Of a stretch of DNA of 16,314 bases, positions 6,555 to 7,596 are shown in pieces. Every line of letters starts with the position of its first letter. Position 1 is the stretch's first letter. The stretch is from a virus (Duplodnaviria; Heunggongvirae; Uroviricota; Caudoviricetes): positions 1-16,314 of IMG/VR virus record IMGVR_UViG_2547132273_000004. One strand, given 5' to 3'. The position numbers were made by a program, and so were the translations under genes. The notes under the pieces were generated by a model. That model was not told the origin of the DNA. It ran no database searches and was given only the letters and a program-made list of their open reading frames with translations.

Positions 6555-6683
6555 AATAACCAAAGTGAACTTTGGGGTGAATGCAGAAGCTAACCTTCTC
6601 GGCGGAGGCGCTTTGCAATGATTACGCGACCGGAGTTAGTCGCCCGGCTGTATTCACCGCTAAAGTTCATCAGGAGGTTCCAT

Positions 6684-7067
6684 ATGACACGCAGAACTCA
6701 GTTCAAAGGCAATTCTCGTTCTCGTCGTCGTGAGCGTTTAAAGGCAAAGGCATTAGCTAACGGCGTACTGGCCCGCGAAGAAGCAATAAGTTCAGAAGTA
6801 TTACACCGCCCAACTCTAAGTAGAGCGCAGATTCAGGCTAAAGGTACTCACGAAACGCCTGATCGCATAGAAGACGCTAAGCCAATTAAGTTCATGGCAC
6901 AGGACGTGATCTGGCAACAGAAAGAATACAGACGCAATCTGGAGCGAGCGGCCATTGTGTACGCGAATGAGTTTGGACATAAGCAACCAGAAACTGGTGT
7001 ATGTCTTCCAAACGTAGCCATTTACGCGGCAGGCTACCGGAAATCAAAACAACTGACGGCGAGGTGA
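6684..7067 (+). CDS. N: Antitermination protein N (127 aa; arginine-rich motif at N-terminus)
   Basis: Start chosen at ATG 6684 (AGGAGG at 6673-6678, 5-nt spacing) rather than track start 6618; N-terminal MTRRTQFKGNSRSRRRERLKAKA is an ARM like those of N proteins; lies between pL/nutL and the early leftward genes. Confidence 0.65.
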   Translation: MTRRTQFKGNSRSRRRERLKAKALANGVLAREEAISSEVLHRPTLSRAQIQAKGTHETPDRIEDAKPIKFMAQDVIWQQKEYRRNLERAAIVYANEFGHKQPETGVCLPNVAIYAAGYRKSKQLTAR

Positions 7068-7125
7068 CTTGTGTTGGTCGCCAGAAAATGAAATTAGGCA
7101 GCAAACCACTTATTTGAGGTGAGAT

Positions 7126-7596
7126 ATGACAAAATCATGGAGCGTACCTTTTCCTGAATCAGAAACTGAACATGATGGAATGCCTGTTTTCTGGAGATTC
7201 CAGGCGACAGTTGAAGAAGATGGGATAAAAATATTCGCACTTCAATATATAGCTTTTCATCAGACAGAGCATTATGCATGGTTGGTTCCTGCGCATTGGA
7301 TTGTTAATTTTAAACCAGCACCAAATCAGTGGTTACAGGAATGGAAACAAAGGAGAAATAGATATGCAATTAAGAAAGTAGCAAAAAATGCAGAAAGATC
7401 TTTTGCATTCCCAACGAAGAAACTTGCCATTGAAAGTTTATTGCGCCGGAAGAAATACCATTTAATGAGAATCAAACAAGATTTGGCTGTTGTATCAACT
7501 CTTGTTGATGGTATGAAGAATATTGATACATCAACACCAGATATTGAATATAACTTTGGACACAACCAAGAAACAGAAAATTGGGTATTTTATTAG
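7126..7596 (+). CDS. Hypothetical protein (156 aa), accessory gene in the ral/sieB slot
   Basis: Complete ORF with GAGGTGAGA RBS; AT-rich; no family recognised; basic central region (RRNRYAIKKVAKNAER...LLRRKKYHLMRIKQ). Confidence 0.5.
   Translation: MTKSWSVPFPESETEHDGMPVFWRFQATVEEDGIKIFALQYIAFHQTEHYAWLVPAHWIVNFKPAPNQWLQEWKQRRNRYAIKKVAKNAERSFAFPTKKLAIESLLRRKKYHLMRIKQDLAVVSTLVDGMKNIDTSTPDIEYNFGHNQETENWVFY

Follow-up and report, generated by a model that had tools for sequence, protein, structure and literature searches.

Probable remnant of a lambda/phage 21-type N gene end behind an apparently intact H-19B/HK97-type antitermination gene

Results

The N Gene and Its Surroundings

The window, a stretch of 16,314 nucleotides of a Caudoviricetes genome, carries an intact N antitermination gene of the H-19B/HK97 type at positions 6684-7067 (plus strand), recognized by its translation, DNA identity, Pfam match, and homologs. 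Its reading frame runs from ATG 6684 to the TGA at 7065-7067 (384 nt, 127 aa) and is preceded by a Shine-Dalgarno sequence, AGGAGG, that can be read directly at 6672-6677 (plus strand), 6 nt 5' of the start codon. Farther 5' of N, an inverted repeat with a 5-nt loop at 6540-6554 (plus strand) gives the nutL boxB hairpin GCGCTGACAAAGCGC; the same 15-mer occurs within the annotated nutL of P22 and at the same site 5' of N in H-19B and HK97. With this cognate boxB hairpin in the leader and an arginine-rich motif at residues 10-22 of the protein (NSRSRRRERLKAK), the N/nutL pair looks complete. Two co-oriented open reading frames lie 5' of the N leader, at 5155-5811 (plus strand, 218 aa) and 5808-6212 (plus strand, 134 aa), and overlap by 4 nt. 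The N-terminal part of the former resembles, by eye only, a helix-turn-helix antitoxin, and a strong terminator-like hairpin at 6221-6240 (ACCCGGCCTCAGCGCCGGGT, followed by a T-run) is found 3' of both; the pair may be a moron inserted between the repressor region and pL.

In a megablast comparison, positions 6600-7200 matched H-19B at 98.3% DNA identity over the full length, and the sequence from 6655 onward matched HK97 at 96.9% and many Stx1 and Stx2 phages at approximately 98.5%. The N protein is identical to that of H-19B at 125 of 127 residues, the C terminus differing only by I114L. The Pfam family PF25694 (N_peptide) matched the 127-aa protein with 57.1 bits (cutoff 27.9), residues 2-127 aligning with profile positions 6-100 of 100 and thus with the C-terminal end of the model, while a hypothetical fusion of N to the -1 frame described below scored lower, 49.6 bits, and its match ended at profile position 96. 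A sequence search found no solved structure of an H-19B-type N. The purified 127-aa N of H-19B is active in antitermination both in vivo and in vitro, its derivative without residues 121-127 shows no defect, and the same study cites earlier evidence that lambda N can do without its last 14 residues (PMC3526286). Judged by these similarities, the N of the window appears to be an ordinary, intact antiterminator of the H-19B/HK97 type with a P22-type tail, and, by analogy to the documented activity of the near-identical H-19B protein, it should be functional.

N is followed by the next gene of the leftward early operon, an open reading frame at 7126-7596 (plus strand, 156 aa) homologous to HK97 gp45, which occupies the equivalent position in HK97; no Pfam family matched the 156-aa protein. 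Its Shine-Dalgarno region, GAGGTGAG, can be read directly at 7116-7123 (plus strand). The HK97 gene numbers skip from 47 (N) to 45, and a small ORF 46 may once have been called in the interval.

A Lambda-Type N End in the -1 Frame

The interval between the two genes is occupied by a second, shifted reading. The -1 frame, one base apart from that of N, is open from 6983, reads ATRNWCMSSKRSHLRGRLPEIKTTDGEVTCVGRQKMKLGSKPLI, and stops at 7115-7117; the first-pass annotation had given these coordinates and translations, as well as those of the N stop, exactly. The end of this frame, TTDGEVTCVGRQKMKLGSKPLI and the stop, shares 11 of 17 residues with the tail of lambda N, including the terminal PLI, and the match lies at the very C terminus. 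The lambda sequence used in the first-pass annotation is correct, lambda N ending in GERGITCSGRQKIKGKSIPLI (NC_001416); when the -1-frame peptide was compared with lambda N by BLASTP, the likeness was confirmed with a pairwise E-value of 1e-05, a match far beyond chance.

At the DNA level, positions 7064-7128 match the in-frame 3' ends of other N genes, with 100% identity in Sf101 and Stx1_1649 and 97-98.5% in HK544 and HK633; N proteins of these types end in SEMGVTCVGRQKMKLGSKPLI or WYSKPRSEMGVTCVGRQKMKLGSKPLI. On the ground of this DNA identity, we consider positions 7068-7117 (plus strand) a probable relic of the last ~17 codons and the stop of a lambda/phage 21-type N (TCVGRQKMKLGSKPLI and stop), noncoding and in the -1 frame. 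The tail from which it would derive has the form TC(S/V)GRQK(I/M)K..S.PLI, and the relic corresponds to its DNA, being 100% identical to the Sf101-type allele. In contrast to the lambda/21-type genes, however, the window has it after the N stop, out of frame with the N body (-1 frame), with its upstream half (NRIYYRKPRSEMG) missing, and as part of no protein.

A 38-codon open reading frame starting from the ATG at 7001 and ending at 7117 was considered as a separate gene and rejected, as its ATG is missing in 933W-type loci and its only changes are nonsynonymous. In the record of Stx2 phage II (L003), an "ORF C53" at 476-736 on the minus strand spans both the 3' end of N and the relic and is probably spurious.

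Two Alternative Tails on the Same N Bodies

Sequence comparisons indicate that lambdoid N proteins end in one of at least two alternative tails. Tail A, LYAAG(Y/H)RKSKQ(L/I)TAR, is found in P22 gp24, H-19B, HK97, and 933W, and tail B, YY(R/S)KPRSEMGVTCVGRQKMKLGSKPLI, in N of the phage 21 type, with lambda having a diverged version of it. The window has tail module A in frame at 7002-7067 (plus strand), where it reads CLPNVAIYAAGYRKSKQLTAR before the stop, a C terminus of the P22 gp24 type; P22 gp24 itself ends in LLPGVALYAAGHRKSKQITAR. The DNA of this module (approximately 7002-7067) recurs in N genes with different bodies, those of VT1-Sakai, HK630, and the 933W-type Stx2 phage II, and megablast split the region into separately shared blocks. 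Among IMG/VR loci, N bodies of the P22, 21, and HK630 types each occur with the A tail as well as the B tail, switching directly after RCKKAEE (L106, L160, L166, L201, L179, and L149 vs. L126, L004 [VT1-Sakai], and L001 [HK630]). Since the same bodies are found with either tail, the RNA polymerase-binding tail of N appears to be an exchangeable cassette.

We searched a collection of 5.8 billion proteins with the hypothetical fusion of N and the -1 frame and obtained 222 relatives at E ≤ 0.001. Nearly all of the 120 best-scoring ones are 120-129 aa long, and every fetched relative that keeps the N 3' end finishes with (Q/E)(L/I/V)TAR(G), including diverged proteins from Salmonella, Enterobacter, and Cronobacter. 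None of the best 120 of the 222 covers the fused query beyond 92%, with the caveat that gene callers would leave a frameshift product unannotated anyway. Together with the tail comparisons, this conservation of a P22/H-19B-type end supports an option that the first-pass annotation had kept in reserve, namely, that the frame-0 CLPNVAIYAAGYRKSKQLTAR is a genuine ending of N: related N genes share it, and the frame downstream of it is not conserved.

P22 gp24 resembles the N of the window in its tail (ALYAAGHRKSKQITAR), the boxB 15-mer, the N-terminal arginine-rich motif, and the match to PF25694; it differs in the center of the protein and in having no relic, with unrelated DNA and a convergent sieB lying 3' of its stop codon. 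In H-19B (AF034975) and HK97 (gp47), on the other hand, the N gene is 97-98% identical to ours in DNA, likewise encodes 127 aa, and ends with the same stop; the 50-nt relic and the downstream gene (gp45 in HK97) follow it as in the window, and the boxB sequence is identical. Both differ from the window by point differences only; H-19B, for example, has AGA TGA for AGG TGA at the joint and TCC AAA for TCA AAA.

The survey of N ends also brought up further variants. A third C terminus, NRSIYYKDSNPLGNKIHAVQKIKLYSKLPYGAY and stop, occurs on bodies of the 21 and HK630 types (L136, L180, and L183) and appears to be a diverged homolog of the lambda/21 tail. In these three loci, it is followed by a gene of 112-117 aa (88 aa and truncated in L183) and then by a long relic, and gene and relic are separated by an intrinsic-terminator hairpin, which is degenerate in L180 and intact in the two other loci. 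In place of GSKPLI, tail B can also end in GSK(P/L)LYEG (GGCAGTAAGCTACTGTATGAGGGGTGAG), which is a living, in-frame gene end in L272 and a relic in L014 and L037. One protein (P0003) is a chimeric N with the N terminus and arginine-rich motif of the P22 type (MTVIVYGKSTFAGNAKTRRHER) and a body of the H-19B type from LKAKALANG onward, and thus shows another joint, within the N gene.

The Relic Is Dispensable for Both Neighbors

As our initial, pattern-based sample required an intact motif and was hence biased, the counts come from two other samples, anchored on the proteins to either side of the relic. Among 80 loci picked by the N protein alone, the relic follows the N stop in 52; in 27 of the 80, five other, unrelated sequences come straight after QLTAR and the stop, so that, with the relic included, six different sequences follow the same stop position. 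Also, the N of P22 (gp24) and of Salmonella phage Oslo has tail A and then unrelated DNA, without the relic. The relic is dispensable for N.

The second sample consisted of 80 loci picked by the downstream protein alone, 78 of which were assessable for TTATTTGAGGTGAGATATG. Only this sequence, allowing for a 1-nt variant, was common to these 78, the exception being L272 with its variant N end, and the relic was truncated, disrupted, or missing 5' of 16 of the 77 copies of the downstream gene (kept at no more than ~20 nt, disrupted, or altered at its 3' end). The N remnants 5' of this gene range from full-length and in frame through ~93, 50, and ~20 nt to ~0 nt. The ~93-nt relic starts with TTTACTACCGCAAGCC and comes after an inserted gene or an intrinsic-terminator hairpin, the ~20-nt relic is GGCAGCAAACCACTTATTTGA, and the shortest class has nothing beyond TTATTTGAGGTGAGATATG. 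In one locus (L248), a 10-nt insertion in the 50-nt relic (AAATTAGG-CTGTAGTGGT-CAGCAAACC) has broken the -1 frame, which shows directly that the relic can decay. Given this insertion and the several lengths of the remnants, the downstream gene needs no N remnant, and the relic is dispensable for it, too. Such a series would be expected from joins that occurred repeatedly and independently close to a single gene boundary.

The longest and the shortest remnants have features of their own. The ~93-nt relic encodes (N)RIYYRKPRSEMGVTCVGRQKMKLGSKPLI and a stop and lies several hundred nucleotides 3' of N (L211, L216, L220, L225, and L283; L011, L045, L203, L182, L090, L136, L183, L128, and L140), either after inserted genes of 88, 112, 138, 143-148, or 161 aa or directly 3' of the intrinsic-terminator hairpin AGCCCACTTCGGTGGGTTTTTTATT; the context looks like a moron insertion combined with a replacement of the N tail. 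The shorter remnants, which consist of the ~20 nt GGCAGCAAACCACTTATTTGA or only of TTATTTGA (L212, L268, L275, L238, L262, and L263; further L276, L214, L213, L219, and L222), form a nested series of joints with one common right-hand boundary.

These samples bear on the idea that the 50 nt have been kept for a role as nucleic acid, either in the initiation of translation of the next gene or as a patch of homology for modular exchange. The relic always adjoins the translation start signals (ribosome binding site and ATG) of the next gene, the same sequence is found with many different upstream and downstream partners, and remnants of different lengths share their right-hand boundary. Against this stand the 16 of 77 loci that have the same downstream gene with a relic reduced to at most ~20 nt, disrupted, or changed at its 3' end, and we detected no significant folding, Rfam family, or promoter or terminator pattern in the region. 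The predicted minimum free energy of positions 7045-7130 was -15.6 kcal/mol in comparison with a shuffle mean of -14.9 (z-score -0.28), an Rfam scan at E ≤ 1 gave no match in the same interval, and neither did a promoter/terminator scan. A passive homology patch, furthermore, follows from shared sequence and is not a selected function. A nucleic-acid role is therefore unlikely. The only terminator-like hairpin nearby, a weak one at 6986-6998, is inside N and of a kind found at chance rate.

An Abrupt Joint at the N Stop

By alignment, a recombination joint can be placed at positions 7064-7067 (plus strand), where the sequence (G/A)TGA comprises both the N stop codon and the start of the identity to lambda/21-type N. 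Tail-B genes and the window are identical from (G)TGACTTGTG onward, and identity is 100% from 7064, whereas the 60 nt 5' of the joint have no DNA similarity to tail-B genes detectable by global alignment, 889 of 2000 shuffles aligning equally well. A short protein-level likeness, IY..YRK, exists between tails A and B 5' of the joint. The (G/A)TGA is the sole sequence common to both parents at the joint: elsewhere, the end of tail-A genes is AGG TAA or AGA TGA, whereas tail-B genes have GGT GTG ACT. The same joint is present in the references of H-19B and HK97, in dozens of IMG/VR loci, and in 642 of 5426 complete Escherichia coli genomes, counting as present those with at least 80% of positions 7030-7128. 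The locus thus has an abrupt switch from no similarity to near-identity, and relatives have other sequences at the same boundary, as expected of a mosaic joint.

This configuration speaks to the possibility, raised by the first-pass annotation, that a frameshift or indel arising in situ in a lambda/21-type N cut off the RNA polymerase-binding tail and left N crippled or a pseudogene and the prophage defective in antitermination. That the frames are only one base apart, that the -1 frame continues past the N stop, and that IYAAGYRKSK is weakly similar to IYYRKPRS just 5' of the joint are what such an event might leave. A one-base indel would, however, leave similarity on both sides, and we find none in the 60 nt before the joint and 100% identity in the 50 nt after it; what is seen is therefore a joint and not a point frameshift. 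In addition, the TAR end is conserved in P22 and in diverged homologs from Salmonella and Enterobacter, all without the relic, the Pfam match extends to the last residue, and the layout is the same in HK97 and in H-19B, the 127-aa N of which has the same end and is experimentally active (PMC3526286). A disabling frameshift is accordingly very unlikely.

Selection on Frame 0 Only

We collected 21 distinct joint-bearing haplotypes from the N- and downstream-anchored samples. In the 63 nt of coding sequence before the joint (7002-7064), they have 16 polymorphic sites, 14 of which are synonymous in frame 0, while all 16 are nonsynonymous in the -1 frame; at one of them, 7040, a G>T change (the 933W-type CGT) creates a stop in the -1 frame. 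Selection acts on frame 0 only. The relic is less variable, with 4 of 47 sites polymorphic across the same 21 haplotypes, and such low variation next to a coding neighbor with 16 could hint at constraint. However, the relic contexts (41 loci) contain three haplotypes and the in-frame copies of tail B (19 loci) four, with the same major allele; the in-frame copies being equally uniform, the uniformity belongs to the allele and not to the relic. The relic sequence is the commonest allele of the living tail-B gene end, and its pristine state does not require constraint, since recency or exchange with living copies accounts for it.

For tail A itself, there are two diverged synonymous alleles, AAC GTA GCC ATT...ACG GCG AGG and AAT GTA GCT CTT...ACA GCA AGA. 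Many recombinants between the two are found inside the 63 nt of 7002-7064, which implies that co-resident lambdoid prophages undergo gene conversion on a very fine scale.

We can picture two ways in which the relic might still matter, and regard the pair as highly unlikely: either a low-level -1 slip at the A_AAA of phages with TCA AAA yields a minor N isoform with a lambda-type, RNA polymerase-contacting tail, or the retained N-tail DNA is a selected linker for modular exchange between N and the downstream gene. If the slip were real, these phages would have two N species of different processivity. Even less probable, and by our estimate barely credible, is the recoding that the first-pass annotation had placed last among its explanations, a programmed -1 frameshift, for example at A_AAA in TCA AAA CAA (7046-7050), giving a minor, longer N with a lambda-type tail; were it true, a classic regulatory system would have a second N isoform. 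In the window, a tRNA-Lys could re-pair at A_AAA and the -1 frame stays open as far as 7117; most loci with the joint have this frame intact. Nevertheless, the overlap contains no X_XXY_YYZ heptamer, and its sole slip site, A_AAA, is lost by a change of TCA to TCC in 8 of the 21 haplotypes, that of H-19B included. All 16 polymorphisms of the overlap alter a -1-frame residue, one of them creating the stop at 7040, neither a stimulatory RNA structure (z-score -0.28) nor an Rfam match was detected, 27 of the 80 N genes have no relic, one relic has the 10-nt insertion, and no fused protein ending in GRQKMKLGSKPLI was among the protein-collection matches listed. Finally, a sequencing or assembly error in the contig, which only the one-base frame offset would suggest, has practically no chance of explaining a joint seen in H-19B, HK97, dozens of IMG/VR loci, and 642 complete E. 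coli genomes.

Discussion

Our analyses favor, with a probability of roughly 90%, the interpretation that positions 7068-7117 are a noncoding relic of a lambda/21-type N end left at a mosaic joint. Among the explanations offered by the first-pass annotation, a fossil of this kind is the one borne out, by the abruptness of the joint and the 100% identity downstream of it.

The simplest origin would be a join in an ancestor in which an A-tailed N gene, through its stop codon, was brought into the interior of a B-tailed N gene, approximately 50 nt before the stop of the latter. The join would have been nonhomologous (illegitimate) or mediated by microhomology and would have kept or created the TGA. 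With the A tail bringing its own stop, the product would have been a complete, functional N of 127 aa, and the displaced B tail would have left its last 16-17 codons behind as a 50-nt out-of-frame spacer before the ribosome binding site of the next gene, presumably untranslated and without demonstrable function. The relic may look pristine because it matches the commonest living tail-B allele and could recombine with living copies. We infer both the direction and the mechanism of this founding event, and the direction is not provable from present-day sequences.

Gene remnants at the mosaic joints of lambdoid phages are a well-known kind of feature. Such remnants at "novel joints" in lambdoid phages are reportedly described in the genome papers of HK97/HK022 and of HK620, and the window resembles them in its abrupt switch near a gene boundary, in the short piece of a displaced gene, and in a boundary reused with many partners. 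There is no difference in kind; the remnant is just easily recognized, being the well-known end of lambda N. The full-text literature that we searched, which included functional work on H-19B N, makes no mention of the relic.

The relic carries little biological weight. The N of the prophage is intact and not to be annotated as frameshifted or defective, and the locus calls neither for a pseudogene nor for the 38-codon -1-frame ORF (7001-7117). It is, rather, a clean example of how lambdoid phages appear to swap the RNA polymerase-binding tail of N as a cassette, with scraps of genes left at the joints, and as such it makes a teaching case.
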